From the NCBI GenBank assembly GCA_026015035.1, contig JAOZHB010000050.1:1-54567 (forward strand): a stretch of 54,567 nt of DNA. Reading direction: 5' to 3'. The first letter of the stretch is position 1. Each line of letters starts with the position of its first letter. Shown here in pieces: positions 1-51,978 of this stretch. The notes beneath the pieces were generated by a model. That model worked only from the letters and a program-made list of their open reading frames with translations. It made no database searches and was not told the DNA's origin. The translations under genes were made by a program, and so were the position numbers. The DNA is from Candidatus Bathyarchaeota archaeon (lineage in GTDB: Archaea; Thermoproteota; Bathyarchaeia; RBG-16-48-13; GCA-020355125).

Positions 1-906
1 TCCTTAGTTACTGTAATAATTGCAGGTAGGAGAACTAGTGTAGAATCGAAAGTCGTAGGAAATAGGGATATTTCCCAAGGCAAGTAGATAGTCCTGCGGA
101 AAGAAACTCGACTATCCGAAAGGATGTAGAACATCACCGCGGAAACACGTCTCAATACTGAAACGGAAACCCAGGCTAACGCGGAGACGAAAGTCAAAGC
201 AGTAACTGGGGGCGGAAGTAGAAGTAGAGAAGAAGATCAGGGATTGGGACTCCTTGGGACTCTTACCTGCACTTTGTTTTATAGGGTTTTAGGTTTTGTT
301 GGAACTGTTTTAACTGTAGTTAGTCAGATATTCATTTGCTAGTTAGACAAGGTCAATTAGCATAGAGTAATCTTTACCGACTGCGCTCATTATTTTTATA
401 CCGCACGTGCTACTATTACTTCATTATCTCAAGCTAGCTAATAGTATCTAAAAGAACTAACAAACTTGGTATTTTTGATAAAATCATATATACGTCATAT
501 ACTCTTTTCTTTTTATTGGAGTTGATTTTATTTCAATTCTAAAAAAGTTTCTAACTTTATACTTTCTAAATTATTAAATATTTTATAAACTATTTTTCCC
601 CTCTTAATTATAAACTGATAAACTTAGAAACTTCATTGGATTTTTTATAATTTAAGAACAAAGTGAAGGCAAGCAAGATACTTTCAAATGTCATTGTCCC
701 CGTCATCGTCTTCAAGGATAACAGAGTTAGATAATTTCAAGACTGATGGTTTATTGCCAGAATTATTCGAGTAACTTAGCTAACCCGCGCTTCTAACGAT
801 ATCTACAAGCTGGTATGTGAATTTATCTAGCTAGTTAATTAAACAGGCCACATCATACTAGCTAGCTGGTGTATTTCATAAAATTAAATAAAAATGAAAG
901 AGTATT

Positions 907-2196
907 ATGTTTGATGTCAAGATGAGTCAAAAAGGTTCTCTAATTGGAACACAAGACCTCCCTATGATAAAGCCCGAAGAGGTGGGGATGTCCTCTGAAC
1001 GTCTTTCCAGAATCCGTCCTGTCATGCAACGTTATGTGGACTGCAATCTGGTGCCAGGTGTTGTCACTCTGGTCGCTCGTCAGGGCCAGGTAGTCTATCT
1101 GGATGCCGTTGGTTTCCGAGATGTTGAAGCCAAGGCTTCAATGAAGACAGATACCATCTTTCGTATAGCCTCCATGACCAAGCCTATCACTTCTGTTGCC
1201 TTGATGATGTTGTATGAAGAAGGTCACTTTTTACTTTCTGACCCCATCAGTAAATGGATTCCCGAATTCTCCGATCCTAAGGTAGCGATATCTGTACCAC
1301 AGAGGGAATTTGCAGGTACGCCTTGGACATTAGTTCCCGCTGCCAGACCCATTACCATCCGACATCTACTCACACATACGGCAGGCCTACAATCTCGATA
1401 TACGCAACATCGGGGAATAACTCAGGAAGAATTCACTAAGATCTCAGAACGTCAAAAGCCTGATGAAACCGTGGGAGAATTCGTCAAGCGTTTTGCCATG
1501 GTGCCCTTGAATTTTCATCCGGGTGATGCGTGGGACTATTCTAGAGCTACTTGCGTTGTAGGTCATCTGGTTGAAATCATCTCTGACATGACTTTAAATG
1601 AATTCTTCCGTGAAAGGATTTTTAAACCCATAAAAATGCTTGATACATACTTTTATCTTCCCAAGGAAAAACTTGACCGATTTGCATCCTGCTATACTAC
1701 AGACAATAATGAACAGATCAAATTATCCGATCCCGCATCCGTTGAGAGCCGATTTGTTAAGGAACCACATCTTTACTATATGGGTTCTGGCGGACTTATC
1801 TCTACAGCAGCAGACTATTTCCGTTTTGATCAGATGATGCTCAACGGTGGAGAACTGGATGGTGTGCGAATTTTAGGACGTAAAACTGTGGAGTTGATGA
1901 CTAGGAATCATACAGGAGATTATCCCATCTGGTTAAGGGGGCCGGGGACAGGTTTCGGACTGGGTTTTGGAATAATCATGAATACTGATCACGTTAATAC
2001 GCTTAAGAGCGTTCACAAGGGTCCTGAACCCTGGTCGGTGGGAACCTATCTTTGGGGTGGTGCCTTCTGTACTTTAGCTTGGGTTGATCCAATTGAACGA
2101 CTCATTGGCGTTCTAATGACTCAGGTTGGGCCCTACAGACACTTGAATATACGCCATGACGTTGTTGGTCTGGCTTATCAGGCTATCGTGGATTAG
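907..2196 (+). CDS. Serine hydrolase, beta-lactamase class C/esterase family
   Basis: FRIASMTK (SxxK), LLTHTAGL, WDYS and WGG motifs; start may be ATG 922. Confidence 0.9.
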   Translation: MFDVKMSQKGSLIGTQDLPMIKPEEVGMSSERLSRIRPVMQRYVDCNLVPGVVTLVARQGQVVYLDAVGFRDVEAKASMKTDTIFRIASMTKPITSVALMMLYEEGHFLLSDPISKWIPEFSDPKVAISVPQREFAGTPWTLVPAARPITIRHLLTHTAGLQSRYTQHRGITQEEFTKISERQKPDETVGEFVKRFAMVPLNFHPGDAWDYSRATCVVGHLVEIISDMTLNEFFRERIFKPIKMLDTYFYLPKEKLDRFASCYTTDNNEQIKLSDPASVESRFVKEPHLYYMGSGGLISTAADYFRFDQMMLNGGELDGVRILGRKTVELMTRNHTGDYPIWLRGPGTGFGLGFGIIMNTDHVNTLKSVHKGPEPWSVGTYLWGGAFCTLAWVDPIERLIGVLMTQVGPYRHLNIRHDVVGLAYQAIVD

Positions 2197-2339
2197 TGGG
2201 ACTAAGCTAGCGCGTGCGCTAAGAAACGACAACTGTACAATGCTACAGTCAGCAACTAATCTGTTCCTCTTTTTTTTCTCTTTCTTATTTTTCATTGTTT
2301 AGTATTCACTAAAGCGCGCTAATTATTTAGACTGATAGT

Positions 2340-2528
2340 TCATTGTCGTCGTTGTTTACGTAGCTCTTTAGGGCGAGTTCGTTGTGTTCTCAGGTGTATA
2401 GCTAAGATGCCTAAGAAGAGCATTATGAGTGATATGATGAAGAGTTCAACGCTTTGAGTCCTCTCCCATACGCCTAAAATTATGATGAAAGACATTGTGA
2501 TTAAGATGATGTATTGACTCAATTTCAA
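2340..2528 (-). CDS. Small membrane protein (2 TM helices, basic tail)
   Basis: Two hydrophobic stretches; GGAGGG upstream on the minus strand. Confidence 0.55.
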   Translation of the reverse strand: MKLSQYIILITMSFIIILGVWERTQSVELFIISLIMLFLGILAIHLRTQRTRPKELRKQRRQ

Positions 2529-2746
2529 TCATTTATCCCTCCAATTAACATAGAACTCCTCTAATTAGATGTACTTAGATAACTAAAATATTATTTTCCA
2601 CTTTAGCCAAACGTATACTGAAATACATCCTTTAATGACAATAGACAAGGCTCCTAAACAACTAATGGGTACCTAATTAAGTCTTAGAATAAAAATTTGC
2701 TAGCCAGCTACACTCACTATATTCACTAAAAAAGAGAGAAAAAATA

Positions 2747-3090
2747 ATGTCAGTACGTAACCATCGATTGGCGAGAGAGAAAAAACAATTGAAGCCATGA
2801 TAAAAATATATTGTAATGATCATCATAGCACCAGTAATGAGCTTTGTTCAAACTGTCAAGAGCTTTTTGAATATGCAAAGACATGTCTTGAAAAATGCCC
2901 CTTCCAGGAGAATAAACCAACCTGTGCCAAATGTCCAATACATTGTTACAAACCACGTATGAGAATAAAGATAAGGTCTGTCATGAGGTATTCAGGACCT
3001 CGAATGTTATTCAAACACCCAGTTTTAGCATTGCATCACGTTCTTGACGGATTCAAGAAACCTGAAAAAACTCCAAAAAGTCAAGGATAA
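2747..3090 (+). CDS. YgbA-family (nitrous oxide-stimulated promoter) Cys-rich protein, apparently frameshifted near the 5' end
   Basis: MIKIYC..C..C..CP..KPTC..CPIHCYKP..MRYSGPRM pattern in ORF 2797-3090; the upstream RLAREK(K)TIEA segment from ATG 2747 is one base out of frame at an A6 run. Confidence 0.8.
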
Positions 3091-3537: not shown

Positions 3538-4350
3538 TTATTTATTGGATTTCGAACCATTCAGCTGATAGCTAGTTAGTTCTTCCTTGATAACGGACGG
3601 CAACCAATCTCTCTCATGGGGAATATTCTCGTTCATTCGTGCGATAGCGATGGGTAAACGCCAAGCCTTGAGTTCTTTGAGTGAAATGTCTCGGATTTCT
3701 CTGTATCGTTCAAGATAGCGGTCAATGAACGATTGTAAGGTCCCATGCCATTCTGGGGGGACGGCGAATTGAAAGCCTTGCGACATCAACAACGTTCTGG
3801 CAATATCGGCGTGTGGATTGCCTTGGCATGCGGTCATCCAGTCGATGATTACTGGTCCTCGTGGTGACATGATGACATTCATCGGATGTATGTCATAGTG
3901 GCAAAGGCTAGTTCCATCTTTCCTTTGGTTGAGGACGTGAAGTGCCCTCGTTCTCTCTTCATCAGAAAGCGTCTTTGCTTGGCGGATGTTACGCTCTATC
4001 ATGCCGCGCAGAGAAGGTATATCGGGTATCTCGTGTGAATGGATGGCTGTGTGCAGTTCTGCAAGTATCTCAGCATATCGTGGAGCCTCATTGGGTTTTG
4101 TTCCCATCTCCTCTAGCATGGGGTTCCCTTCTACTCGTTCGAAGATTATCCCCTTTCGTCCATCCATGTCAATGATGCCTTCGACGGCTGGGGCTGGCAA
4201 GCCAGACTCGTAGATAACGCGGGATAGCTTCTCCTCTCTTTCGATCCAGCTATGAGGACACCAATCCATAAACAATTTTAGGACTCTGTTATCGCCCCAA
4301 GCAAATACCTCGGCGGTACGACCAGTCCCAATGAGTGGCCCTTTCTTCAT
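3538..4350 (-). CDS. Aminoglycoside phosphotransferase/kinase-like protein
   Basis: IGTGRTAEVF, VLKL, CHYDIHPMN and IIDW kinase motifs. Confidence 0.85.
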   Translation of the reverse strand: MKKGPLIGTGRTAEVFAWGDNRVLKLFMDWCPHSWIEREEKLSRVIYESGLPAPAVEGIIDMDGRKGIIFERVEGNPMLEEMGTKPNEAPRYAEILAELHTAIHSHEIPDIPSLRGMIERNIRQAKTLSDEERTRALHVLNQRKDGTSLCHYDIHPMNVIMSPRGPVIIDWMTACQGNPHADIARTLLMSQGFQFAVPPEWHGTLQSFIDRYLERYREIRDISLKELKAWRLPIAIARMNENIPHERDWLPSVIKEELTSYQLNGSKSNK

Positions 4351-4395
4351 TCTGAATTCCCGATAGCTAGCTAATTTCGTCGTGAGAAGATCTTA

Positions 4396-4704: not shown

Positions 4705-4833
4705 TTCTTATTTATTTACTTCTCAAAGGCATAGTCATTTATACGGTATAGCACCTCATAACTAAGTGATTTGTAATCAAGCTCCGAGGTGGGGAGCTAT
4801 ATAAATACCAAGAAGAAAGGGAGGTAGAGAAAT

Positions 4834-5172
4834 ATGCCGACTCTTTTTGCTGTGTACAACATAAAAGAGAAACAAATGGCTGAGGAATTCGACAAATATC
4901 TCACCAACACGAAAATTCCAGGGATCAGAGGGGCGCCTTGGTGTACAGCATTTAATACTTGGAAGATAGACAAGGTTCTTGCGCCTGCAGTTTCTGAACC
5001 TGAGGGAGAACTGCCTTCAGAGTCTCCTTACATGTATGTTGCCAAGATTGAAGTATCTGATTTAGATGCAATGGTGAGTTTTCTTGGCACTGATGAAGGA
5101 AAAGCATTTGTCAAATCCTGGAGTGTCTACATTGATCCTGGAGCGATCTTCACACTGGGGCATGAAGTATAG
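4834..5172 (+). CDS. Dimeric alpha/beta-barrel (EthD/REDY-like) protein
   Basis: Size and pattern (LFAVYNIK..PYMYVAKIEV.D); GGAGG RBS. Confidence 0.6.
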   Translation: MPTLFAVYNIKEKQMAEEFDKYLTNTKIPGIRGAPWCTAFNTWKIDKVLAPAVSEPEGELPSESPYMYVAKIEVSDLDAMVSFLGTDEGKAFVKSWSVYIDPGAIFTLGHEV

Positions 5173-5313
5173 CAATCAGCTAACTAACGAGCGCACGCAC
5201 TAAATAGGAAATCAACAGGCAACTAAAAGCAAATAAACACATATCACCTCCTTTCTTTTTATTAGCTAGCTAGCTGAGATGCATCGTTCACTGATACAGA
5301 AGTTCATAGACTA

Positions 5314-5940: not shown

Positions 5941-6049
5941 TCTACACGCTTCTTGTAATCAGTATAACAGTCAGTACTATTCGAATACTAACAAACGATA
6001 AATCTAGCTAGCTTCTAATGAGTTGGGTTACGAGCTGTATGGTTCGAAG

Positions 6050-6169
6050 CCGCTGAGGGGGTCGTGGGCTGGGAGCTGGTGATGCCTGCGTCGACTTGTC
6101 CACTCACGAGTATCCCAATTCGACGCATTGGGCCCGCCGATCCTCGGACGCTCCCGGCATTTCAGGCGG
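6050..6169. ncRNA. Candidate structured RNA/DNA element, family unknown
   Basis: GC-rich intergenic patch with complementary segments 6087-6094/6120-6127, 6057-6064/6138-6145, 6068-6076/6150-6158, 6050-6056/6162-6169. Confidence 0.3.
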
Positions 6170-6584
6170 ATTTAACAAGGTATAATGCACGCAATATCCG
6201 TGTCATTTCCCTATGTAACAGGTCATCTTTTAGGCGCCTTAGACGAAATACGCCGCGATTTAATCTCCTTCCCAGAAAAATTTTTTTCAATTTATCGTTT
6301 TTTACATATGGAAAAATGAGAGAGACCCAGTCCACCTGTACATACAGCAGTGGCCTATCTGGCTAGCGATAAATGGTAATGTATCCCAATTATTTCCTAA
6401 AATTTACATTTTAGAGCCCGAGAATTTGCCCTTTTTATGCATTATCTTAAAGAAATCTGTAAATTCAAAACAGCTAGCTAGCTTTGTTCTTTCATACAAA
6501 GAGGCTTGGATGAAGCAATCTCTAACAGCTAGCTAAATTTTTTTATTAGTTTTGCTAAAGGATGTATTAAGCTGGGATTGAACC

Positions 6585-8151: not shown

Positions 8152-8278
8152 CATCACTCCTTCTTCAGCGTTTAAGGTGCATATGCCTTGCTAGCTAATT
8201 CGCTTCAATCGTGCTGGACTGACGAGCACCAATATTCCTGTTCGGCACTCCAAGTCTTCCCATTTCACGCAGCTTATG

Positions 8279-9074: not shown

Positions 9075-9453
9075 GTAAGATTCACTGTAGGAATGAAAAT
9101 AATATGTATAGCTAGCTTTCCTTAATCTATGTTTTGCCTCTTCAAGTCGTAGATGGCTTCATACGCTGATTCTTCTACACGAAGGCCACTGGAGGCGAAT
9201 TCGTCACCAGTGGTCATATAGCTGCTCATGAAGAGAAGTATCGCTCATCAAAATAAAAGCACAAGGCGTATCCATAGCTAGCTACTCTTGGTAACAAGGT
9301 CAACCGGTAATTACGTCGCCTGTTTCATCGTAGCCCGTGATGATGTACCCGTCTGGTACTCACCACTTAAAACCTATGAAATAATTATTTAACGAGATTG
9401 CGTTTAACTTGATAGCTCAGTCGGGTACCAAAAGAGGGGGGTGGGGCGTTTCG

Positions 9454-9942
9454 ATGCGGGGTAAAAGTCATTTGTTGCTGGCGATCCCCCTGTACGTTCT
9501 CAGCGTTAAATACCTCTCCCATGCTCAGGAACTCTTGTTATCTCCGTTTTTCGCCTTGTACTGTCTCACGGCCATGGTGGGCGCCCTCTTCCCCGATGTA
9601 GACTGGGCCATCGACAGAGTTATTCCGGGATTCGGTCATCGAAACCCTCTCACGCACTCGCTGCTGGGGCCCCTGCTCCTCTACATCCCGATATTCATCT
9701 ACAAGGTTTCCCATCCCCTGCTCACCAACTCGTACAACGCTTTCACCTTCGGGATTGCGACTCATCTATTCGGCGACTTAGTGAAAAGAGGCAACTTGAC
9801 ATGGGTCAAGTCGAGAAAACAAGAACACGCGTGGTACATCCTGAACGGAGCCGTATTGGTAGTCCTCTTATCCATGACCGAATTCCTCAAGGCCCTCCCT
9901 CTTGGAACGTCAATCATTAATTTCATCAACACCTTCTCTTGA
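9454..9942 (+). CDS. Membrane-bound metal-dependent hydrolase (YdjM-like)
   Basis: SH, GALFPDVD, HRNPLTHS and THLFGD motifs. Confidence 0.85.
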   Translation: MRGKSHLLLAIPLYVLSVKYLSHAQELLLSPFFALYCLTAMVGALFPDVDWAIDRVIPGFGHRNPLTHSLLGPLLLYIPIFIYKVSHPLLTNSYNAFTFGIATHLFGDLVKRGNLTWVKSRKQEHAWYILNGAVLVVLLSMTEFLKALPLGTSIINFINTFS

Positions 9943-10185
9943 AAACGCTGCGTTAAGCAAGCTAGAGGCTGATGAGTAATTATTGACGCTTCCATACTCT
10001 TGCTTACCCCGTTCCTTCCGACGTTATGCTGTGAGCCGTGTTGGGAGCCCCACGAGGCTTTCAAAGCCGCGTTCGACGCTCTACCGCTTCTGCTTCAGCC
10101 TCCTGTACAACTGCGAGCCCCCTTCGATGACGGGGTGGAGCGCGCGCTAGGCTCGACGTGGGCTGCTGCCTGAAGACGACTGACG

Positions 10186-10773
10186 TTACCTTGCCAGGGT
10201 GAAGCCCACTAAACAGGTGCCGACTGCACCTTCTTCAGAGGGGACATCTAGCATTCGCTTGATCAGGATGTCCCCTTCTGTTGAGGGCGTTCCAAAGACG
10301 CTGCATTTGACGGTGGAGAGGCCTTGAAGCTGAATTGCTTCTCGAGAAGGGTATATGATCCGGAGTTTACGCCTTCCCGCGGGATCTTTCGGAAGCCGCT
10401 TCACGTAGACGACGAAGTTTTCCCAGAGGAAGAAGTTATAAGGGCTTTTTCTCAGTTCCTCCAACGCGTCTTCGTCGTCTATGAGTTCACCTACGACTTG
10501 ATCGCCGCATCTCATGCTTACGTGGGGGTGATGGGGATGCGGAAATATTGACGACTGGATAACCATGGCGACAGTGAACTCCATCTGAAGGGCGGCTCTC
10601 ACGCCCTCATTCAGGGATTTGGACATCCCGAAAACGATTTTCTCCTCTACGTTCTTTTCAAGATCAAGAACTGTCTGCTTCTCCTCCTCTGACAGAAGCC
10701 TTGCGGCGATGACACCGCAGCACCCTCGTAACGTCCTTATCACGTTTTCAAGCTGACCCTTCTTGGTTTCCAT
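10186..10773 (-). CDS. Hypothetical protein
   Basis: 195 aa ORF, RBS-like GGGGAG upstream. Confidence 0.65.
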   Translation of the reverse strand: METKKGQLENVIRTLRGCCGVIAARLLSEEEKQTVLDLEKNVEEKIVFGMSKSLNEGVRAALQMEFTVAMVIQSSIFPHPHHPHVSMRCGDQVVGELIDDEDALEELRKSPYNFFLWENFVVYVKRLPKDPAGRRKLRIIYPSREAIQLQGLSTVKCSVFGTPSTEGDILIKRMLDVPSEEGAVGTCLVGFTLAR

Positions 10774-41683: not shown

Positions 41684-42754
41684 TTATCGTTGTTTTTGAA
41701 GTGCCCAGTAAGCTGCTATACCTATGACACAAACTAATGCAATTGCTGTGACTATTGCTACTTCTGTTGAGATTAGGGAAGTTTGTGTATTAGGTTCTTC
41801 AGGTTGTGTTGTCGTAAAAAGATCAGCAATTCTGGTTTCTTTGTAAAGAAGCCCATTTTCTTCAATAACTCCCTCCGCTCCCTGAATGACTGAATTTAAT
41901 ACCGTTTCTAAATTGAGCTTTACTGTTCTATCAAAATGATGATTTTGGTAAACATATATTTCCTTGTTGACTGAGTCAAAGATGTTACTATATTTTGTTC
42001 CATATTCACCCTCTTCATGAATAGCATCAAGAATACCTCGAACTGCCTCAACTGTCAGATCCTGTTCAGAAGTTATTGCTTCAAGCATCGAAGTGGCTGT
42101 ATCATACCGCTGACAAGGATACTGTCCCACATTGGTATTCGCCAGATTAAAGTTTGTTGAAATAATATATCTTAAAGACCCTTTTCGCGTAAAAACAAAT
42201 TCTCCATCTTCTCCTACACTAACAACTACAGCATCGCCAGAGGCATCTGCAAAATGTAGTTGGTTACTCCATTGGGTTCCAAGATTATGAGATTGAAACC
42301 ATTCAATAACTTCATCTACATTGCTGCATTCCATCAGAATCTGGTCTAATGGATACGTGAAAGTGCTTTCTCTCTCTGGGTGAGGATTAAGATTCAATAA
42401 TGGAAGCGCATTACCGTCAGCACAGAGTCCCGGATCATTCATGCCTCCTTGAGCGTATCCATCCGCTTGATCGTCATTGTATTTATAGCCAAAAGCAACC
42501 ACACCATGAATATCTATAGTACCTGATGGAGTATCCAACTCTTGAGGTGGCACTGTCCACATATAGGTACCTGTAAGGCTATAATCTTCATTACTCCCAA
42601 AAAACACAATATCACCAATAGAAACTGTAAAAATGGAACATGATGTTGGATTGTCAGCAGAGTAAGCAAATACATTTGCAGCCACCATCGAAATTCCAAT
42701 GGACAAGAAAATAAATACAACACATTTCCTGATATATTGATTATTCATAAGCAA
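41684..42754 (-). CDS. Secreted, membrane-anchored Ntn-hydrolase (C45/choloylglycine hydrolase-like)
   Basis: Signal peptide, SCSIF..GSNED nucleophile region, GGMN..GL, STNF, C-terminal TM. Confidence 0.8.
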   Translation of the reverse strand: MLMNNQYIRKCVVFIFLSIGISMVAANVFAYSADNPTSCSIFTVSIGDIVFFGSNEDYSLTGTYMWTVPPQELDTPSGTIDIHGVVAFGYKYNDDQADGYAQGGMNDPGLCADGNALPLLNLNPHPERESTFTYPLDQILMECSNVDEVIEWFQSHNLGTQWSNQLHFADASGDAVVVSVGEDGEFVFTRKGSLRYIISTNFNLANTNVGQYPCQRYDTATSMLEAITSEQDLTVEAVRGILDAIHEEGEYGTKYSNIFDSVNKEIYVYQNHHFDRTVKLNLETVLNSVIQGAEGVIEENGLLYKETRIADLFTTTQPEEPNTQTSLISTEVAIVTAIALVCVIGIAAYWALQKQR

Positions 42755-42772
42755 AACCTTGTTTCTACAAAA

Positions 42773-43459
42773 TCATCGTCGTCTCAAGTATAATACAGGT
42801 ACAATAGCAGCAATTGCTATTGCGACTATTAATACATAAAATAAGGTTGGTTCCAATCCAAATATTTGAGATTGCCACATATTTGTTTTATCAACAATAA
42901 ATTTCTGAGTGAAATCATCCGCAGATTGGTCTGATTGAAGAAGAATCCCAGTAGTTTTATCCCATCTGAATACGATCTGATTAATGGTTGCGTAATTAAC
43001 AAGTCTATTTGCATCTGCATATGTATGCTCTTCTGTACCACCAATTGCGATGTTCCCGAAGTCTTCGTGATAGAATTCATCGCCAATATCAAGGTTTACT
43101 GGTACTAGTAGGAGGTTAGGAACTCCTGTTTCAAGGTTGAAGGTACCGCTATTTGTGTCCGATGTTCCGTCTAATCTCTCAACCGTCAAATCAGCGGTTA
43201 TACTCGTTCCTTGAATACTTGTGACCTCGATTCTCACCCGTTTTGGGTAATTATTTGGAGGAGAACCAGTGTAACTAACGTTATACTCGATCCAATCCCC
43301 TTCTTTAACACCTACAGAAACATCAGCTAATACTGACACTGGCGATAAAATAACAAGCGATATTAAACTTAAACAAAACAATTCAGAGGAAAGTTTCTGG
43401 GTCATAAAACTTCCTTCCAATCTTTCATGTTTTTCCATTAAAACTTTATGGTCAAACAC
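42773..43459 (-). CDS. Secreted/surface protein with C-terminal membrane anchor
   Basis: Signal peptide, VGVKEGDWIEY, WDKTTGIL, TM followed by RRR; true start possibly 43405. Confidence 0.75.
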   Translation of the reverse strand: MFDHKVLMEKHERLEGSFMTQKLSSELFCLSLISLVILSPVSVLADVSVGVKEGDWIEYNVSYTGSPPNNYPKRVRIEVTSIQGTSITADLTVERLDGTSDTNSGTFNLETGVPNLLLVPVNLDIGDEFYHEDFGNIAIGGTEEHTYADANRLVNYATINQIVFRWDKTTGILLQSDQSADDFTQKFIVDKTNMWQSQIFGLEPTLFYVLIVAIAIAAIVPVLYLRRR

Positions 43460-43676
43460 AAGTTATTCGAGGTCGCCATGTTTCTCTTTCATTTCTTAGA
43501 AACTTAGCTAGAAATATGTTTCCCATCCCTCAACACTCATCAGGCGTCAGGTAGGAACAGCACTAGCTGCTCATCGTCGCTGTCCAATGGGCTCTCATAA
43601 AGTCGATCGAGCTGGGACTAGCGCGTGCTCAGAAGTTCCATAAACATCACTTCGTCGACGACAATCAGTCGAGACA

Positions 43677-44066
43677 TTATTCTTCATGGCTCGCAGGCGT
43701 TAACCCTTCGTTATCATCAACGTATGTACGTCCTCGCGCCAAGTTGATCCTCCACTTCCGATCAAACGCCTCATCAACGTCGAGGGTGGGGTCAAGGCAG
43801 TAGAGGCCATTGAGGCAGTAAAAGATGGCGTCGATGAATTCTTCTGCGACGTGCGCCGTGAGCTCCTCGTCTGTGGAGACATTTAATTCTCGTTTAAGCC
43901 ATTCCCTGTCTCCGCGGTGCTTCCACGCGTCGCCTGCTTCCCCCAACTCAATAATGGCGTAAAAGACCTTGGTCCCCACGTGCTCTCGACTTATGCCCCA
44001 GCCAAACCTCTTGGCTAACTCAATTACCTTGTCTTTAGCTATGTTTAACGTAGGCATATCATCCAC
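43677..44066 (-). CDS. MazG-like NTP pyrophosphohydrolase
   Basis: ELGE...EE..D..FY...K. Confidence 0.75.
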   Translation of the reverse strand: MDDMPTLNIAKDKVIELAKRFGWGISREHVGTKVFYAIIELGEAGDAWKHRGDREWLKRELNVSTDEELTAHVAEEFIDAIFYCLNGLYCLDPTLDVDEAFDRKWRINLARGRTYVDDNEGLTPASHEE

Positions 44067-44429
44067 CCCACTTATTTAGAAGGTCATTATAACAGGCAAA
44101 CAGACCTTTAAGGCGAATAGCAGGCTCTTCCTTTTATCCCTTATGACGAAAACCCAGTGAGGAACCATTCTACTCAGAAATCATCAACAGGAATACGTAT
44201 CCCTAGGGAGCGTATAGTCCACCCCTGTGTGAAACGCCAAACAAAGACTGCCCAGCTCCGAACAGCTGTTATGGGTGTTTGAGACACCGTCAATCTATAC
44301 GATTGGGCGATGAAGCCGTCGAACCCGTGTGTATAATGGTAGATGCCGTAAACATAGACCGTCGATGTTTTTAGTATGCAGAACCATTTATGTTCCGTGA
44401 ACTCAATTAAAGATGAGAGGAATAGTGTT

Positions 44430-45206
44430 ATGCAGTGGAAGAAGAACAAGTTAAAACGTATCTTGGAAGAGGAAAAAATCGCGGTGGGCACGGCTTTTTA
44501 CTCCTTCAGTCCTGCCCTCGTGGAGACCGCTGGTTACTGCGGATTAGACTTCTGTCGTATCGATAATGAGCACGCGTGGCGACAGGATGAAACCCTCGAG
44601 CACATGTTACGGGCGGCCACAATTTCCGATATTGTGGCGTTGCCGAGAGTCGATGGAAATCCGGAACTCATTCGAAAGGTGTTGGAAGCGGGAGCCTGGG
44701 GCTTCGTGGCACCCCACGTGTTGACGAAAGCAGACGTCACGAAGATTGTGCGAGCCGCGAAGTTTCCCCCGCAGGGAGAACGAGGATACGGCAGCATGTG
44801 TTTCTCCGGTCGATGGGGAACGGGCTCCGGTAAGGAATGGATCGAGTGGAGTAACGAGGAGACCATGGTGGGCGTCATGATCGAGGATTACCGGGCGGTG
44901 AAGAGGATCGAGGAGATCATGGCCGTTGATGGCTTAGACTTCATCCTCTTTGGACCGTCAGATTACTCAGTCTCCCTCGGACTCCCGACGCAGACCACGC
45001 ACCCGAAGGTCATGGAAGGCCTGCAAAAGACCATCGACGCCGCGAATCGACATGGAAAGTACGTGATGAAGGGGGTCGGGTATCCTTGGCGGGAAAACGC
45101 CGAGAAGTATATTGAGATGGGCTGCCACCTCATCGAGTTGGGCCACGACGTTTCAATCCTCAGCGCCATGTGGAAACGACTCGGCAGTGAGGTGAGAACC
45201 CTCTAA
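44430..45206 (+). CDS. HpcH/HpaI aldolase family protein
   Basis: IDNEH, FPPQGERG, MIED, FGPSDYS. Confidence 0.92.
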   Translation: MQWKKNKLKRILEEEKIAVGTAFYSFSPALVETAGYCGLDFCRIDNEHAWRQDETLEHMLRAATISDIVALPRVDGNPELIRKVLEAGAWGFVAPHVLTKADVTKIVRAAKFPPQGERGYGSMCFSGRWGTGSGKEWIEWSNEETMVGVMIEDYRAVKRIEEIMAVDGLDFILFGPSDYSVSLGLPTQTTHPKVMEGLQKTIDAANRHGKYVMKGVGYPWRENAEKYIEMGCHLIELGHDVSILSAMWKRLGSEVRTL

Positions 45207-45272
45207 GCTGGCGGCGAAGAGACCGCTCAGCTAGCTCCCTCAGCCAATACATTTAGCGTGCGCGTGTAGTGC

Positions 45273-46208
45273 TTATGCTTTGAAAACTCCCGTATCAATC
45301 CACTCAGTTTTGATGAGGGACCACCAGTCGATAGCAAGTGATTTCTGTACATAATCATACGGCAGCCAACCGTACCCACTATCGCCCCAACTAGTACCCC
45401 AAGAGTTACGTATAAGAAGTGCCCCCGTTGTCTTTACCCCACAAAGCGTGTTTTCAATCTCCACGTCGTCATCAAATCCTACGGCAACTACCGCATGACC
45501 CCCAAGACGTTTGTCTCTGGAACACGGAAAGGGGATCTTTCCAGTTGTGCTGGCTTGACGAATCGAATTGAAGACCGTAAATCCAAACATGGAGGGGAGA
45601 CCAGCGGTCAGAAAGGCCTTTATCCGTTCTACAAGCACATCCTTGGCGGTGCCAGGAGGGTCGAGACGATAGTACATAATCGACTTGTAGTCTTGTGCAA
45701 AGGCGTAACAGAAGGCAGGAGGCTCCTTCTCGAAGTCACCAATCGTGTAAACCCAATATTCCTCTGGGCAGACACCAAAAAGGACCATGGCCCCCATCGT
45801 TGTACGAATAAATGCTCCAGTATCCCCAGTCCAGTGAAGAAGGTTTCGAGTTGCCTTATACAGAAACAGCCTTGACGCATCAACATGCTTACCGAAAGCC
45901 CTTCGCTCATAGTATTCCATGAGGCCTACCCCTGCATTGGCTGTACATGAACCCAGAGAACCTTGGTTCTCTATAGGCGGGCACCATCCCTTTAGGTTGA
46001 ACGAACTAGGAATACTCACTTTGGTGGGTTCTAACACGCCCACTTTCCCTAACAACACGCTTACCGAGTCTTCTTCTTTCTTCAGTCCAATTTCCTGATG
46101 TCGTGGACGAAGGTCCTTCATGTCAATCGTGAAGTCGCGAAAGTCGGGATAATCTGGCAACCACCCCAATCCTAATTCGACGCCAACTCGTTCTTCTTTT
46201 TCAGTCAT
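45273..46208 (-). CDS. C1 (papain-like) cysteine protease
   Basis: NQGSLGSCTANA, GGHAV, RNSWG. Confidence 0.93.
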   Translation of the reverse strand: MTEKEERVGVELGLGWLPDYPDFRDFTIDMKDLRPRHQEIGLKKEEDSVSVLLGKVGVLEPTKVSIPSSFNLKGWCPPIENQGSLGSCTANAGVGLMEYYERRAFGKHVDASRLFLYKATRNLLHWTGDTGAFIRTTMGAMVLFGVCPEEYWVYTIGDFEKEPPAFCYAFAQDYKSIMYYRLDPPGTAKDVLVERIKAFLTAGLPSMFGFTVFNSIRQASTTGKIPFPCSRDKRLGGHAVVAVGFDDDVEIENTLCGVKTTGALLIRNSWGTSWGDSGYGWLPYDYVQKSLAIDWWSLIKTEWIDTGVFKA

Positions 46209-46454
46209 TGTCTCTCAAATACGTAGAATGTATGTATAGATATAAAAACGTTTGACGCACGCGTTTAGAGAGGATAGTAACGTGAAAAACACAACAATTG
46301 ACACGTGAAACGCTCTTCGGATAGAAAGCTATGGGCACCTAGTCGCTAGCTAGCGAGCTTAAAACCTTGAAACCATTGAGTGCTAAGAAACTTGCCATGA
46401 GCTAGCTAGTTAAAAAGGTGGGGCGAGTACGCTATCGTACTCTTCGTGACGATG

Positions 46455-46932
46455 CTAGTATGCTTTAGCGAGACCATTGCCTAGTAATGTTAAGTGATTT
46501 CTGTCATGAAGCATTACGGACGCAGCGACAGTGTCGATCGGTACTAGTTCCAAATATTTTTCCGTGTATTTGGCATATCCAATTGCGTATGCTTGTTGGA
46601 ATGTTTTTCCTTCTAAGAGGGCATAATTTGCGGCGTTAGAGGCTTCAGTAAACCTGTTCAGATGCCATAAATGCGCCCAATGAAGGTCGTTATAGCCTAA
46701 ATAAGCTTTGGCCGTGCTCGCGATGGCGAGAGGGCCCAGTCCTGCCGCGGATTGGCATGATACGGTACTCGCAGCACGTCCTGAGAGAAGGCCTACATTG
46801 CCAGCGTCTAAGGCGGCTTCGAGAACCCCTGACTCCTGACCCCAGAGCGTGAATGTGCTACCATGATCATAATGTATCACGAAGTCAGGATCTTCTTCGG
46901 AGATGTTGGTGGTGACTTTTTCCCGACTCGCA
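46455..46932 (-). pseudogene. N-terminally truncated caspase/gingipain(C25)-fold-like protein
   Basis: YDHGS..SCQS..YLGY..LLGN pattern; the protein-like part begins right after TAGCGCGCGCTA (46933-46944) and upstream in-frame sequence looks non-coding. Confidence 0.5.
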
Positions 46933-47068
46933 TAGCGCGCGCTAATGTAACAAGGAAGGGAGATCCGACGAATTTTAAAAGAAAAAAAAGATCGGCTATT
47001 TAGATAAAAGAAAAAATGGGGGAACATTGCGGGAGATCTCTCCCACAACATACTGGTTCAGACCTGAT

Positions 47069-49216
47069 CTAGTCTTCCTCGAGTAGACAGAACCCTTTAT
47101 CGTCAACATTGCGGTTGTGGCGACGCTCACTATTACGGATAGTTCGATCCCATACTCGGACTCGGACCACGTAGCCACACGCCACCATAGTTTTAGTATC
47201 CAGTTTCCAAGCATTACCTGCTAACGCCGTCTGTGATTCACCCGATGATACTGGAAATATAGTGCCTGTTGTCGGACTTGGCGGCGACATGCTGGCGGGA
47301 AGGGTATCCAGTCTGAAGTGTCCGAAGTGGAGATCACGAGCCACAAACTTACCGGTGATCACAGCTCCAGGCGCGTACTTGTCACACGCGCCACCGTCAA
47401 TGGTGATTTCGGCAGTGGGCACAGTGTTGTCTAGGCGGATGCGATACCAGGGTGTATTATCTAGATTGAGCGTGCCTGCATTGTTGTACAGTCGCAAGCG
47501 TATCTCCCACAGGCCGTCGCCGCTTGTGGACCACTCAACTAGCTTGTTCAAGACGTTTTGCGTTACATCCAAGTAGTCAAAGAGACCCGTGACAGGGTCA
47601 GCGTTGTGATAGGATCCATTCCCGTACATGTCCACGACCCAGATCTTGTTTGTGATGGTGAGTACGTTAGAGCTGCCGAACTCCCTTACCTCGATGCAGT
47701 ACTTGAAACCAACGTTGGGTGGCGCATGAGCGATTACAAGACCGCCAAAGGGGCACTCCCGCAGGTGAGTCCCCCAGGGATCAGCAGGGGTGCTCCACAC
47801 CGCAAATTTGGCATTCGGCTTCGTCATGCCATTACTCGCCGTATTGATATCGCCAATTCCGATACCGCCCAGGATGCTGATCTGCGCCATAAGTTCCCAA
47901 GGTTTCCCTGGCTTGATCTGCACGTGGGTGTCCAGACGGTTACCCCAATAGGGGACGTCATTCGGGTCAGTGGTGGAGGGCGGCGTATTCCACGATAGAA
48001 CCGCACGCACACGGGCAATCTTCGGCTTGTTGCACGGTTGACGGTGCGAGCGTAGATCGACGGGGAGGATGGCCGTATAGTGAAGCCCATCGGCTGGCAT
48101 GCTTGCTATGTCGTAAACACTCACTTCCACCGTGTCGAGATAGGTCCACTCACAGGTGTCATCCCAGTCCGCCCAGAACGCTATGTACTCCTTGCTACCC
48201 TTCTTGCACAGGTCGCCCGAATACCCGGACGGTTTCTTGATGTGGAACGCAGCCAACAACCACTCAAGGTTATAATCCAGGCCCAAGCAATCTAACTCCT
48301 CGTAGGAAACGTTGCCGCTGGTCGCTTGCAGTGCCTCAACCGCAGCTGACCAGTCTAGGCCCACCGCATCCCATTTAGCAATCATCTTTGAAACTATCTG
48401 CGGGTTGACCGCCCCGACAGCTAGGTGCGCCTGGATATCGTTGAAACCGAACCGGTGTGGCTCCACAGCGATCTTCCCCACTTGCATCTTTGTGCCTGCG
48501 GGCGTGGTATACAGTTTCACTAAGTCAGGTAACTCTAGAGGGGGTGGTTCGGGCTGGGGAATTGGACAAGGCTCGACTTCCTCGAAGATCGGTGGCAGCT
48601 TAACCTCTTGCTTCAGAGCGATCCCGATGACCTTTACCACATCAGCAAGTAACCACAGTCGTGGTTTAATCTGGATGTGCCGCTCAAGCGTATTTCCCCA
48701 CACCATTGGCCAATCCGGGTCATCGTCAGGTGGCTCTGCCTCCCAAGACAGGATGGCCCGCACATTGGGGAGGACGGGGTTGCCACAATAGTCCCGATGT
48801 GGCTCGATGGGAAGCGTCACCACATAGGTGAGAGGTTTGTTGGGCTTGCCAGCGCAGTCGTTAGCGTTGGGGATATCATGAGCATTGAAGGCGACGAGGC
48901 CTGCGTTCTCCCAGCCGTCCCCATAATCTATGAAGAATCGCACGTATTCTGTGGTTCCAGGCTGGCACAGGTTTCCCCCATAACCGTGTGGTAGTTTAAC
49001 TTGTACGGTGGCTTCCAGCATATTCAGGTTGGGATTGAACCCGACGCAGGTCAGTTCTTCGTACGTGGTGTTGCCCACGATCTTCTTCACTGTCTTGAAG
49101 GGGCTTTTAGGCAGAGTACCAAAGTAATTCGGATTTTGAAGCATCAGCTTCTTAAACTCAATCCTTTCCTTTTCCACCTTCACTTCCATATTTCTTCCTC
49201 TTGTTTCCTTTTTCAT
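47069..49216 (-). CDS. Large hypothetical protein with an internally duplicated domain
   Basis: GNTTYEELTC..GYGGNLC..EYVRF..RAILSW..WGN..HIQIKP repeated as GNVSYEELDC..GYSGDLC..EYIAF..RAVLSW..WGN..HVQIKP; GGAGGTGA RBS. Confidence 0.85.
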   Translation of the reverse strand: MKKETRGRNMEVKVEKERIEFKKLMLQNPNYFGTLPKSPFKTVKKIVGNTTYEELTCVGFNPNLNMLEATVQVKLPHGYGGNLCQPGTTEYVRFFIDYGDGWENAGLVAFNAHDIPNANDCAGKPNKPLTYVVTLPIEPHRDYCGNPVLPNVRAILSWEAEPPDDDPDWPMVWGNTLERHIQIKPRLWLLADVVKVIGIALKQEVKLPPIFEEVEPCPIPQPEPPPLELPDLVKLYTTPAGTKMQVGKIAVEPHRFGFNDIQAHLAVGAVNPQIVSKMIAKWDAVGLDWSAAVEALQATSGNVSYEELDCLGLDYNLEWLLAAFHIKKPSGYSGDLCKKGSKEYIAFWADWDDTCEWTYLDTVEVSVYDIASMPADGLHYTAILPVDLRSHRQPCNKPKIARVRAVLSWNTPPSTTDPNDVPYWGNRLDTHVQIKPGKPWELMAQISILGGIGIGDINTASNGMTKPNAKFAVWSTPADPWGTHLRECPFGGLVIAHAPPNVGFKYCIEVREFGSSNVLTITNKIWVVDMYGNGSYHNADPVTGLFDYLDVTQNVLNKLVEWSTSGDGLWEIRLRLYNNAGTLNLDNTPWYRIRLDNTVPTAEITIDGGACDKYAPGAVITGKFVARDLHFGHFRLDTLPASMSPPSPTTGTIFPVSSGESQTALAGNAWKLDTKTMVACGYVVRVRVWDRTIRNSERRHNRNVDDKGFCLLEED

Positions 49217-49841
49217 GATGTTGTCACCTCCTTTTTATTCACTTGAAAAAGTTCTACCGATTAACATATGTGGCACACTATATTTGAAGTAATATGTTTT
49301 GCAGAACTTTATCCTAAAAATCTATTAGAAATATAAGCTTTTTAATGAGTAGAATTGCTGTCGTTGATGTTACTGGCTAGAAGAGCCTCTATAACAAAGC
49401 TGGAGTAAAGGATCTTTCGCAATACTCTTTTTCGAAATAACTCGTTGGCAGGTATTAACTAGGGGGTGTATTGATCATCTGGGTTTCTTATGATTCTTGT
49501 GCTGGTTTACAAGCTGGTGGATTCGTCGCCTGAGGGCGTCCCTGATGACGTCATCTAGTTAGCTAGTTCTCCTAGATCAGAATCAGGGAACAACATACTA
49601 TATAGTTTAAAACTGGGAAGCCAATTAATAACATGCATACGAAGTGGGAGTGGATCATCGAAGCAAGCGAAAACGGGGAGAGTGTCAGTATTACGGTCAA
49701 GAGCCCCGAAAGCAGGCATACCTCAAATGGGGTCGTCGAGAAATCCATTAGAGCGCCGTAGGCACCTATCGCATGATCCACTGCATCATTGACTCCGCGA
49801 ACCTCGTTCACACTCGGAACGCGTTGGAGAGAGGAAAATAA

Positions 49842-50984
49842 ATGAAGATAACGAAGGTAAAGACGTTCATCGTCCACCCGGGAGTGGGTAAGAACTGGCT
49901 CTTTGTGAAAGTAGAAACGGATGAAGGCATTCATGGGTGGGGGGAAGCCTACACGCAAGCTGACCGAGACACAGCCATCGAGGCCCATATCCACAAACTG
50001 GAACGGTACTTGGTGGGGTGGAACCCCTTCGAAATCAAGCGATTCACCCACATGGCCTACGAGGACTGGGCTACCAAGCGGGGTGGGATCGACTTTTTCT
50101 GCGCCGTCAGCGGAGTGGAACAGGCCCTCTGGGACATCGTTGGTAAGACCCTTGATCAACCCGTGTACAACCTGCTCGGGGGGCCCTGCCGGGATCGGAT
50201 CAGGGTCTACGCCAATGGCTGGTCGACGCGGGCAGCGACTCCCCAAGAGTTGGGTGAGCGGGCGCGAGAGGTGGTGAAGAAGGGCTTCACCGCCCTCAAG
50301 TTTGACCCCTTTCCGGGGCCTTGGCGGCTGTATATCACCCGTGAGGAGGAGCTGCAGGCCATCGGGAAGGTAAAAGCCGTGAGGGAAGCGGTGGGTCCGA
50401 CGGTGGACATTCTTGTGGAAGTGCACCGCCGCTTGGCGCCCATGCACGCCATTCGCGTAGCCCACGCTATGGAAGTGTACCGACCTTTCTGGTATGAGGA
50501 GCCGGTTCCTCGAGAGAATTTGGAAGCCTTAGCCGAGGTGCGGCGGGGCATCAGCATTCCAGTGGTGACCGGTGAGTGCATCTACACGAAAGCGGGATTT
50601 CGCAGGGTGTTTGAGACGAGGGCTGCGGACATCATCAACCCCGATATCTGTAACACGGGCGGCATCCTCGAGCTGAAAGAAATCGCCGCCATGGCCGAGC
50701 CCCACTACGTAGCGGTTTCCCCCCACAACTACAACAGTATGACGATCGGCCTGGCCGCGAGTGTGCACACTTCAGCAGTAATGACTAACTTCCTCATTCT
50801 GGAGTACTTCCTCAACTTTGAGGCCATGAGCGGTGAAATAGCCGTCGAGCCGTTACGGGCCAAGCAAGGCTTCATACGGCTTCCGAAGACCCCGGGCTTA
50901 GGAGTGGAACTGAAGGAAGAGGCCTTGGCCCGGTATCATTACCAGGAGTTTCCCAAGCGGTCGATAGCACGCTACTTGGTATAG
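49842..50984 (+). CDS. Galactonate/gluconate dehydratase-like enolase-superfamily protein
   Basis: EQALWDI.GK, YANGW, KFDPF, EVH, EEP, TGE, PHN. Confidence 0.93.
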   Translation: MKITKVKTFIVHPGVGKNWLFVKVETDEGIHGWGEAYTQADRDTAIEAHIHKLERYLVGWNPFEIKRFTHMAYEDWATKRGGIDFFCAVSGVEQALWDIVGKTLDQPVYNLLGGPCRDRIRVYANGWSTRAATPQELGERAREVVKKGFTALKFDPFPGPWRLYITREEELQAIGKVKAVREAVGPTVDILVEVHRRLAPMHAIRVAHAMEVYRPFWYEEPVPRENLEALAEVRRGISIPVVTGECIYTKAGFRRVFETRAADIINPDICNTGGILELKEIAAMAEPHYVAVSPHNYNSMTIGLAASVHTSAVMTNFLILEYFLNFEAMSGEIAVEPLRAKQGFIRLPKTPGLGVELKEEALARYHYQEFPKRSIARYLV

Positions 50985-51087
50985 AGAGTCTTGCTAGCGC
51001 GCGCTAGAGAAGATCATAACAAAATTGCTTTAGAAGAATTCAAGGAAATAGGAAAAAAGCGCTCGCGCTTTTACGGAGGCTTACAGT

Positions 51088-51609
51088 TTGGTCAAGTTTG
51101 TTCCCTATGATGATAACAGACATCGAATCCCATTCTTTGAGTTGAATGTAGAGTTAATTACTTGGATATCTGAAGAAATGCGTGCACGCCATAATGTTGA
51201 TGTCGAATCAATGATGGGACAAACCGTCCAAGAATACGTTGAGACCGTCTTTGATACCTTCACAGCCCTCAAACCGCCTAAAGGCATACTCTACATACTT
51301 GAAATTGATGATGAAGTAGCCGGTATGGGCGCTGTAAAACCCTTGGAGGATGGCGTAGGAGAAATTAAACGCATGTACATTCGTCCGAAATATCGGGGAA
51401 AAGGGTTCGGAAAAGCGATGTTACAAAGGCTAATCCAGAAAGCGAAAACGTTGGGATACACAACCCTTCGTCTTGAAACTGGAGATTATTCAACTACAGC
51501 TCATCATATTTACAGATCAGCGGGATTTAAGGACATAGATGAATATACTCATACGGAAACCCCAGAATGGTATCGACAATACTGTTTGTTCATGGAAAAG
51601 AAGCTGTGA
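51088..51609 (+). CDS. GNAT acetyltransferase
   Basis: EIKRMYIRPKYRGKGFG, IY...GF. Confidence 0.9.
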   Translation: MVKFVPYDDNRHRIPFFELNVELITWISEEMRARHNVDVESMMGQTVQEYVETVFDTFTALKPPKGILYILEIDDEVAGMGAVKPLEDGVGEIKRMYIRPKYRGKGFGKAMLQRLIQKAKTLGYTTLRLETGDYSTTAHHIYRSAGFKDIDEYTHTETPEWYRQYCLFMEKKL

Positions 51610-51725
51610 TAGCTAGTAATTGGGTTTGGGGGTTTAGGGGGTTAAATTTTTATTCTGAATTTTCCTGATGGTCTTAGTTATGCATATACGTTATCACGTT
51701 GTAGTTAGACTGCTCTGGAGCTGTT

Positions 51726-51890
51726 TTATTTATGTAAAAAGAGACCACCTGTCACTATGATGAGTAAGCTGCCTATTGCGACCGCTGCCCCGATTCCTCC
51801 TTCTGTAGCGTTCGGATATTCATATGATATCACAAACGTGGTTATAGCGAGTATGAGCCCAATTAGAATTAGCTTATATCCAACACTCAT
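51726..51890 (-). CDS. Small 2-TM membrane protein (54 aa)
   Basis: Manually translated MSVGYKLILIGLILAITTF...GGLFLHK. Confidence 0.55.
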   Translation of the reverse strand: MSVGYKLILIGLILAITTFVISYEYPNATEGGIGAAVAIGSLLIIVTGGLFLHK

Positions 51891-51978
51891 TTTAACACGA
51901 CCTAGAAGTAGGGGTATTCAAGGCTATAAAAGAACCGTCTAATTTATTGGCAGCTAGCTAGCTTAGCGCGCGCGCTAT

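Follow-up and report, generated by a model that had tools for sequence, protein, structure and literature searches.

Intergenic (AGCT)n runs at indel and synteny junctions in a Candidatus Bathyarchaeota genome

HIP1 of cyanobacteria (GCGATCGC) is a short, lineage-restricted palindrome and by far the commonest oligomer of its genome. The same can be said of the (AGCT)n runs described here, head-to-tail repeats of a palindromic 4-nt unit in a 54,567-nt stretch of DNA from a Candidatus Bathyarchaeota archaeon (GenBank assembly GCA_026015035.1, contig JAOZHB010000050.1). This stretch, called the window below, is one complete contig of G000, a metagenome-assembled genome (MAG) of 2.06 Mb in 146 contigs with 48.9% G+C, assigned to Bathyarchaeia on the evidence of its thermosome. 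The relatives named most often are the congeners G001 and G002, the single-contig G004 of another genus, and G121 and G148 of other families. HIP1 occurs within genes as well and has a fixed length, whereas 85% of the AGCT runs were intergenic; they stood at indel junctions, measured 7 to 16 nt and occurred in four phases with no single fixed word. HIP1 has also been described as embedding a methylated CGATCG motif (PMC6604393), whereas no methylase was found for the runs in the two families searched. When the literature was searched by the motif letters, only primers and test oligonucleotides were retrieved, and no description of the motif in Bathyarchaeia was found.

Interstitial telomeric repeats are similar in another respect. 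Break site and repeat reportedly share a few nucleotides of homology. These short tandem repeats stand at loci that are empty in the orthologues of relatives and have been read as filler of break repair (PMC7215372, PMC2246262, PMC8537989). The AGCT runs resembled such filler in that five deletions in G000 were replaced by a run, three of them polarised by G001. However, interstitial telomeric repeats are the product of telomerase, which copies an RNA template, whereas the reverse transcriptase domain RVT_1 (PF00078) was found, among 12 genomes, only in the run-poor G001 and in none of G000, G002, G004, G121 and G148. The AGCT unit is moreover palindromic, and its host is an archaeon without telomeres.

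A doubled 4-nt palindrome is also what filling and ligating a 4-nt staggered cut would leave, and trapped type II topoisomerase with end joining has been reported to yield de novo duplications of 2-4 bp (10.1101/2020.05.03.075358). An earlier note on the window, made from its letters, had proposed simple 4-nt fill-in or target-site duplication. This part of its proposal was not supported as worded: the fillers were about 7-19 nt and came with a loss of 166-380 nt, in place of an exact overhang length; no more than 2-4 nt of the unit was present at ancestral sites; and among the runs all lengths between 7 and 16 nt were represented, in each of the four phases. Type IIA topoisomerase (PF00521) was found in 0 of 41 genomes, and Ku (PF02735) in one of the 41 (G007) and in none of G000, G002 and G004.

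In polymerase theta-type end joining, 2-4 nt of homology prime an end, which then takes up a few bases from another place before it is joined; this is the step that we infer for the runs. To our knowledge, archaea have no polymerase theta. Its insertions copy nearby, varied sequence and not one genome-wide palindrome; templated insertions in microhomology-mediated joining have been described from eukaryotes (PMC9962433). Integron cassettes are comparable as single genes or small sets that are bounded by palindromic sites and gained or lost as units. Their attC sites are imperfect palindromes of 57-141 nt that lie together in one array and are recognised by the IntI integrase next to it. By contrast, the AGCT sites were 7-16 nt long, scattered over the genome and arose at joints that had no site, the ancestral allele being run-less in three polarised deletions. 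With microsatellites the runs share a head-to-tail unit and 4- and 8-nt polymorphism at the same places in G000 and G002, but their length distribution was not open-ended. Repetitive extragenic palindromes (REP), bacterial interspersed mosaic elements (BIME) and miniature inverted-repeat transposable elements (MITEs) likewise form hundreds of intergenic palindromic copies. These are, however, 20-400 nt long with conserved sequence, whereas nothing past the AGCT run was conserved, and a family of about 480 nt that lies between runs accounted for few runs only.

Runs at junctions between related genomes

The runs coincided with indel and synteny junctions, arose de novo at deletion joints and bounded inserted DNA; they also served as insertion points and then decayed. 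Our reading, to which we assign a probability of roughly 0.45, is that they are junction sequences of illegitimate recombination, that is, joints of broken, deleted or inserted DNA made through a short palindromic tract. The earlier note had raised a repair or recombination scar and its coincidence with synteny breakpoints, and comparison with the congeners supported a tie of the runs to such junctions.

Homology ended at runs beyond chance. Sixty of the 220 contigs of G002 (281,322 bases) were compared with the whole of G000, BLAST ends were taken as junction positions, and 110 of 293 high-scoring segment pairs (HSPs) were kept (at least 78% identity, 300 nt). Among the 136 HSP ends away from contig ends, 24 lay within 3 nt of a G000 run of at least 7 nt, 17 of a G002 run and 37 of either, showing that a run was present in both genomes at only about 4 ends. 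Against the 24 observed, 5.2 ± 2.1 were expected for random positions in the same spacer (largest value in 500 trials, 13) and 3.4 ± 1.7 for positions at random genes that were matched in offset and in type of gene end (largest in 500, 8). By hand count, a junction run was present in 12 of 32 colinear neighbouring HSP pairs and absent from 20.

The 29.6-kb contig C1 of G001 was colinear with window positions 9426-13323, then 26699-33810, then 43514-44159 and then 49565-50992, and the last three of these joints were common to G002. The 9.7-kb segment 33811-43513 was missing from both congeners, which had a 142-nt run-less spacer instead. It started exactly at AGCTAGCTAG (33810-33819) and stopped exactly at the 7-nt run TAGCTAG (43505-43511); the left run contained the TAG stop of a reverse-strand gene (33812-35089, -) and lay 4 nt upstream of the ATG of the next gene. 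A second segment without counterpart in G001 and G002 (5.4 kb, 44160-49564) stopped exactly at another TAGCTAG (49560-49566). Two 7-nt runs in close succession (AGCTAGC aagc GCTAGCT, 26650-26667) stood about 30 nt ahead of the restart of G001 homology at 26699. The block homologous to contig C88 of G002 had both ends at runs: it began at 3569 in TAGCTAG (3569-3575), at the 3' end of an APH-like open reading frame (ORF), where G002 carried AGCTAGCTAGCT, and its opposite end, at 4365, fell in TAGCTAGCTA (4364-4373), where G002 was run-less. At 8190-8197 both genomes had a run, one unit different in length (GCTAGCTA in G000, GCTAGCTAGCTA in G002), with an indel of about 170 nt directly after it.

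Insertions of 9.7, 5.4, 5.3, 4.0 and 0.5 kb in G000 were bounded by runs. The empty site in G002 was itself a run or near-run in three clean cases: TATCTAG for the 5.3-kb insertion in contig C9 (filled site TAGCTAG...CTAGCTAG), TAGCTAGC for the 4.0-kb insertion in C19, and a single run, GCTAGCTA, for a copy of the ~480-nt repeat in C122. A 1.4-kb insertion in C108 had a run at one side only. In five deletions, 166-380 nt of G002 were swapped in G000 for 8-19 nt of run, and the long allele was run-less at its ends. At 3787-3805 of contig C45, AGCTAGGCTAGCTAGCTAG replaced about 380 nt of a PyrI-PRTase ORF, of which both G001 and G002 have intact copies; most of the PyrI domain was gone, and pyrI looks disrupted in G000. 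G001 had the long allele colinearly for three of the five deletions. When two deletions were aligned three ways, both long alleles were run-less and the left joint shared AG or TAGC with the run. Since the ancestral long alleles had no run, these runs arose together with the deletion.

The motif also marked variation among assembled contigs from several studies, a comparison from which uncovered parts and short-sided joints (e.g., 37741 to 48032, side 20) were left out. Contigs of three studies (coded X1, X6 and X8) carried a variant in which 40260-41675 was replaced by 24-25 nt. The left edge of this 1.4-kb presence/absence variant was the run TAGCTAGCTAG (40250-40260), and its right edge lay within a (GC)5 tract. 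Two further population joints, 45218 to 49803 and 46933 to 49487, had a single edge at or near a motif; AGCTAGCT (45229-45236) was 11 nt from the left edge of the former, a 4.6-kb joint recorded in one run.

A 64-aa ORF at 41472-41665, preceded by the Shine-Dalgarno-like GGAGGTGA, was 82-85% conserved in G001 and G002. The run TAGCTAGCTAG (41437-41447) lay 25 nt upstream of its ATG, and its stop was contained in CTAGCTAG (41658-41665). Both congeners also had a run after this ORF, in G001 just past the stop, and the 5' end of the G002 copy was cut away exactly by a run.

Segments bounded in this way could alternatively mean that a dedicated site-specific recombinase uses the runs as minimal crossover sites, integron-att-like without a long attC, and that run-to-run segments are excised as circles and reinserted, shuffling cassettes. 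We regard this as unlikely. In its favour, insertions were bounded by runs at both sides, the three clean empty sites were runs or near-runs, and the ~480-nt repeat and the 64-aa ORF behaved as run-bounded cassettes. Eight tyrosine-recombinase matches (PF00589) were found in G000, compared with 1-3 in four relatives. However, these recombinases were diverse (22-36% identity) and not consistently beside runs, some having runs nearby and some having none within 1.5 kb. A range of 7 to 16 nt in all phases also misfits a defined core site, and the ancestral allele was run-less at both ends in the three polarised deletions. The window itself held ordinary metabolic genes and one interrupted integrase; at the contig end (53129-54169), a tyrosine-recombinase gene was split into two ORFs by one in-frame TAG.

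Abundance, placement and competing explanations

In the window, AGCTAGCT occurred 31 times, compared with 0.52 ± 0.67 (maximum 3) in 100 dinucleotide-preserving shuffles, in agreement with the more than 25 copies that had been claimed, and TAGCTAGCTA occurred nine times against 0.03 expected. Maximal (AGCT)-periodic runs numbered 45 at a length of at least 7 nt and 33 at a length of at least 8 nt. The 33 were nearly all intergenic, as the earlier note had it: by our crude gene model, 28 lay between genes, 2 lay across a gene end and 3 lay within ORFs. Only the run at 24165-24173 was clearly coding, which corresponds to the one coding copy noticed near 24164; the other two fell in a weak 74-aa ORF (35492) and a doubtful N-terminal extension (39998). 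The perfect 14-mer AAGCTAGCTAGCTT was found at 35443-35456, as reported. The span of 827 to 51963 given for the motif was too narrow, since the run at 432-440 falls outside it. The histone-thermosome-tRNA block and the long operon had been described as free of the motif. This stood for runs of at least 8 nt, none of which occurred in 9285-15061 or 17650-23641, but not for shorter ones: the 7-mer GCTAGCT lay upstream of the histone gene (10845), and CTAGCTA closed the last gene of the operon (23529).

Across G000, the four rotations of the AGCTAGCT type were the four commonest 8-mers (591, 510, 487 and 404 copies). Runs of at least 8 nt numbered 738. Although the genome is 80% coding, 624 of them (85%) lay between genes; 67 were at the edge of a gene and 47 within ORFs. 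When 16 doubled palindromic tetranucleotides were compared in intergenic DNA, AGCT/CTAG had 499 and 350 copies and GCGC/CGCG, i.e., (GC)n, had 248 and 131; AATT and TTAA were mildly raised (47 and 41), and the remainder had at most 21. Coding DNA was depleted in CTAG (0.38 of expectation) and GCGC (0.51), which is compatible with past restriction pressure. Tracts of (AATT/TTAA)n were also present in intergenic DNA (29 of 8 nt, up to 16 nt), above the other controls, but the spacers are A+T-rich.

A second intergenic palindrome, TA(GC)4-5TA, was observed in the window at 2210-2219, 35793-35802, 37112-37119, 37595-37602, 41674-41683, 46935-46942, 50997-51004, 51966-51975 and other positions. In G000, GCGCGCGC had 300 copies, and (GC) runs of at least 8 nt numbered 228. 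A link between this palindrome and the AGCT runs was rejected, as they co-occurred no more than expected from sharing spacers. In the G002 sample it gave no breakpoint signal, being found at 2 of 136 homology ends where the null predicted 1.0. It did hold an edge of two population joints (41676 and 46933).

Runs were found in all spacer types: 284 in tandem, 145 in convergent and 140 in divergent spacers, or 1.43, 1.96 and 1.35 per kb. Their distances from starts and stops were broad, with no preferred value. Position weight matrices (PWMs) of the flanks were flat, and 1350 of 1471 run flanks had no relative in the genome. With neither a fixed distance nor conserved flanks, the runs were not promoter or terminator elements at a fixed position, nor were they the ends of one large repeat family, and both candidates were rejected.

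Selection for function in some other form, either as the site of a dimeric DNA-binding or chromatin protein or as a six-frame translation-stop boundary between genes, is in our view distinctly unlikely. A palindrome of about one helical turn (the lengths plateau at 7-10 nt), 85% intergenic and in some cases kept in place between congeners, would fit such a site. Of 1896 ORFs, 103 ended in a run, 90 of them via TAG. Overall stop usage was TAA 768, TAG 595 and TGA 533, showing that TAG is an ordinary stop here and that the runs often close reading frames. Any run of at least 11 nt has TAG in all six frames, so an ORF that enters it is closed; we see this closure as a consequence of the runs rather than their cause. 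Non-palindromic three-frame stop repeats showed no enrichment in G000, and the (TCGA)n runs that take the place of (AGCT)n in another genome, G722, contain no stop codon, indicating that a six-frame stop is not the common cause. Against such a site, distances from starts and stops had no preferred value, runs came in every phase and in varied lengths, and the spectrum of variants looked neutral; it would also leave the exact coincidence with indel junctions unexplained.

Runs may also be footprints or target-site duplications of transposons that target CTAG, AGCT or TA (IS630/Tc1-like, IS5-like) or of their MITEs, lengthened by repeated insertion and excision, but this is very doubtful. In its favour is the ~480-nt non-coding repeat (window 6000-6484), which has AGCT runs at both borders (CTAGCTAGCT, 6004-6013; AGCTAGCTAGCT, 6472-6483), a third run at an inner homologous position and short TTGAAT/ATTCAA terminal inverted repeats, and which was inserted into what is a single run in G002 at C122. 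About 35 matches to this repeat at about 75% identity were found in G000 and many in G001 and G002; it had no conserved ORF and no Rfam match. The deletions replaced by runs were unlike excision products, most flanks were unique as given above, and the searches for transposases offered no candidate. DDE_3 (PF13358, IS630-type) was found in 1 of 41 genomes (G025), the TnpB zinc ribbon (PF07282) in none of G000, G001, G002 and G004, and DDE_Tnp_1 (PF01609, IS4/IS5-type) in one copy each in G000 and G002 and not at all in the run-rich single-contig G004. The only DDE_Tnp_1 match of G000 lay in a G+C-rich IS4/IS5-type insertion sequence with 24-nt inverted ends in surroundings of lower G+C (contig C84, 1041-2067); its ends differed from the runs, and it had no relation to them. 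None of the 20 multi-copy protein families scanned in G000 was a transposase; metabolic paralogues were found instead. These multi-copy families included MtmB-like methyltransferases, B12-binding proteins, aldehyde:ferredoxin oxidoreductases, MR/MLE enolase-superfamily enzymes and four Alba paralogues.

Searches for other enzymes had a similar outcome. Only PF01555 and PF00145 were searched for methylases; the former (N4/N6) had no match in G002 or G004 and, in G000, only one that was weak and partial, and the latter (C5) had none in 5 genomes. Prim-Pol (PF09250) was found in G121 only. As far as the families searched extend, the run-rich genomes thus offered no cognate candidate among methylases, Ku, type IIA topoisomerase or IS630/IS5 transposases; the earlier note had suggested looking for a methylase, nuclease, end-joining system or IS.

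Growth of ordinary microsatellites, in which replication slippage would extend a hairpin-prone palindromic unit that is tolerated only outside genes, was considered highly improbable as the explanation. Among runs in G000, 198 were 8 nt long, 187 were 9, 164 were 10, 77 were 11, 68 were 12, 33 were 13, 8 were 14, 1 was 15 and 2 were 16. In the intergenic profile, lengths of 4-5 nt were not over-represented; counts stayed level from 7 to 10 nt and dropped steeply past 10 nt, unlike the geometric tail of slippage, and all four phases were present at each length. Arrays remained short even when mismatches were tolerated (at most about 23 nt, against a perfect maximum of 16 nt), and decayed long microsatellites were rejected for this reason. 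(GC)n was expanded too, as slippage would allow, but other palindromic units were not; there were 160 intergenic 8-nt runs of AGCT and 3-8 of the control units TCGA, ACGT and CATG. Slippage would explain the differences of 4 or 8 nt between orthologous runs, but it does not put runs at indel joints, and the junction data already argue against it as the sole cause.

After their formation the runs drifted. By hand count, about 5-6 of 17 G000 runs in aligned spacers were also conserved in G002; other orthologous positions showed 4- or 8-nt differences in length or a degenerate form such as TAACTAGTTA. Conservation at syntenic, non-rearranged sites, which the earlier note had taken as evidence against scars, was thus seen in part, and it is compatible with inherited scars and with function alike. 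Genome-wide, TAGCTAGCTA had 253 variants with one change at any of its six inner positions, compared with 209 perfect copies, and the changes were mainly G>A and C>T. Such a spectrum resembles that of tracts that were perfect at first and then decayed neutrally.

The view that the runs are an artefact, i.e., linker or fill-in ligation junctions (proximity-ligation-like) or assembly chimeras, hardly merits credence: fill-in and blunt ligation of 4-nt overhangs do yield doubled palindromes, and the runs do lie at apparent breakpoints, but it is already contradicted by their 85% intergenic placement in an 80% coding genome, by some runs that are shared, flanks included, at orthologous places in separate MAGs, by their presence in single-contig G004 and in contigs of several studies, and by a length (8-16 nt) below that of assembly k-mers.

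Runs and neighbouring features along the window

The remaining runs of the window were distributed as follows. At the left end, AGCTAGCTA (432-440) and CTAGCTAG (827-834) were intergenic, and CTAGCTAGCT (858-867) lay upstream of a beta-lactamase-like gene. Intergenic runs followed at 5263-5275 (TAGCTAGCTAGCT), 6527-6535 (AGCTAGCTA), 9109-9117 (TAGCTAGCT), 9275-9284 (TAGCTAGCTA) and 15062-15069 (TAGCTAGC). The run AGCTAGCTAGCT at 17638-17649 separated a GCV_H gene from the operon. A PhoU-type gene (23644-24678, -) had its stop overlapped by AGCTAGCT (23642-23649) and contained the clearly coding run, TAGCTAGCT (24165-24173). Further on, GCTAGCTA (26571-26578) was intergenic, and TAGCTAGCTA (28123-28132) occupied a convergent spacer.

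In the right half, intergenic runs were present at 35242-35252 (AGCTAGCTAGC) and 37293-37300 (TAGCTAGC), and AGCTAGCTAGCT (35444-35455) formed the 14-mer palindrome together with its flanks. The runs in the weak 74-aa ORF and the doubtful N-terminal extension were TAGCTAGCTA (35492-35501) and AGCTAGCTA (39998-40006), respectively. One convergent-spacer run was CTAGCTAGCT (38653-38662) and another was TAGCTAGCTAG (38737-38747). The TAG stop of a gene for an HTH_10 regulator was followed immediately on its 3' side by TAGCTAGCTA (41336-41345). Two more intergenic runs, GCTAGCTAGC (46345-46354) and AGCTAGCTAG (46400-46409), preceded the last one, AGCTAGCTAGCT (51952-51963), which abutted the palindrome TAGCGCGCGCGCTA.

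Two other features of the window were noticed. An intergenic stretch of about 125 nt (4711-4836), upstream of the gene at 4834, had matches of 82-88% over 45-126 nt in G001, G002 and G004 and could be a conserved leader or small RNA. A 93-nt tRNA gene (13229-13321; Rfam, 49.4 bits) is probably interrupted by an intron; ARAGORN assigned it no amino acid and an anticodon of four letters. Homology to contig C1 of G001 stopped at the 3' end of this tRNA gene.

Distribution, proposed mechanism and meaning

The 12-mer AGCTAGCTAGCT was counted in 401 Bathyarchaeia genomes. At least 7 copies were present in six (G000, 70; G002, 40; G004, 33; G121, 25; G001, 9; G148, 7), and 370 had none. In G004, the first nine listed of the 33 copies fell in two clusters (176-193 kb and 363-391 kb of contig C1), which hints that runs are concentrated in variable regions. 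G459, with 142 copies, was set aside: three 20-kb stretches of it (60 kb) had 9% long ORF, 36% G+C and several other palindromic runs, and they may not be comparable archaeal DNA. One genome, G722, among 401 genomes of the phylum sampled, had 86 copies of (TCGA)3 in 1.7 Mb and none of (AGCT)3; in 6.3 kb of it that were read (C5 and other contigs), ten TCGA runs of 8-16 nt were seen. Elsewhere (TCGA)3 had 4-8 copies each in G021, G229, G363 and G397. The use of TCGA in place of AGCT in G722 shows that the unit is lineage-specific.

Several observations weigh against the reading of the runs as joints of illegitimate recombination. No run in either genome was present at 99 of the 136 homology ends, and the majority of the 738 runs are not tied to any event with the data at hand. 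G001 gave no match for two of the five deletions, leaving these unpolarised, and some joints had no microhomology (C38). From the identity of the flanks, about 3-4 of the 17 runs should be conserved, slightly fewer than the 5-6 counted, and the surplus could point to function. Within the runs, T and A were about half as variable as G and C, which mutation bias would explain and selection on TAG/CTA would as well. No protein family tested tracked the trait, and no enzyme or pathway was found. The MAG has an estimated contamination of 7.4%, and our own gene model is crude (hexamer-scored ORFs; 1983 genes, 80% coding genome-wide). Finally, the templated tailing proposed next is a step that we purely infer.

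The runs could form as follows. A resected 3' end with 2-4 nt of the unit (AG, GCT or TAGC) would anneal to any other run of the cell, prime synthesis there and gain a few units. As such a tract can pair with itself, a pair of ends tailed in this way could anneal and would then be sealed. Every event would add a run, so that the process would feed itself and the seeding unit would take over a lineage, AGCT here and TCGA in G722; a self-feeding process would explain why one unit wins in each lineage. Existing runs would then be preferred points for insertion, selection would clear runs from genes and leave the intergenic remainder, and point changes and the gain or loss of 4 nt would alter the runs later. 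In its full form, which we put forward tentatively, the proposal is a self-propagating palindromic linker: some archaeal lineages may tail broken or incoming ends with a lineage-specific tract copied from the hundreds of such tracts in the genome, making all ends mutually cohesive.

Break repair and the uptake of new genes in archaea that lack Ku are poorly known. Here, one short sequence marked a large share of the indel joints between congeners (12 of the 32 colinear pairs sampled). If the runs are filler, illegitimate recombination in uncultured archaea could be read off from them, and they would offer a handle on the enzymes involved; if instead they serve a recombinase, no smaller cassette sites would be known. 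Because the runs are patchily distributed and another lineage has a different unit, comparative genomics can put the question to the test. Should the linker proposal be true, the runs would act as universal junction points at which genes could enter, leave or change place as cassettes, with neither a site-specific recombinase nor a transposase involved, and every interrupted reading frame would be closed.

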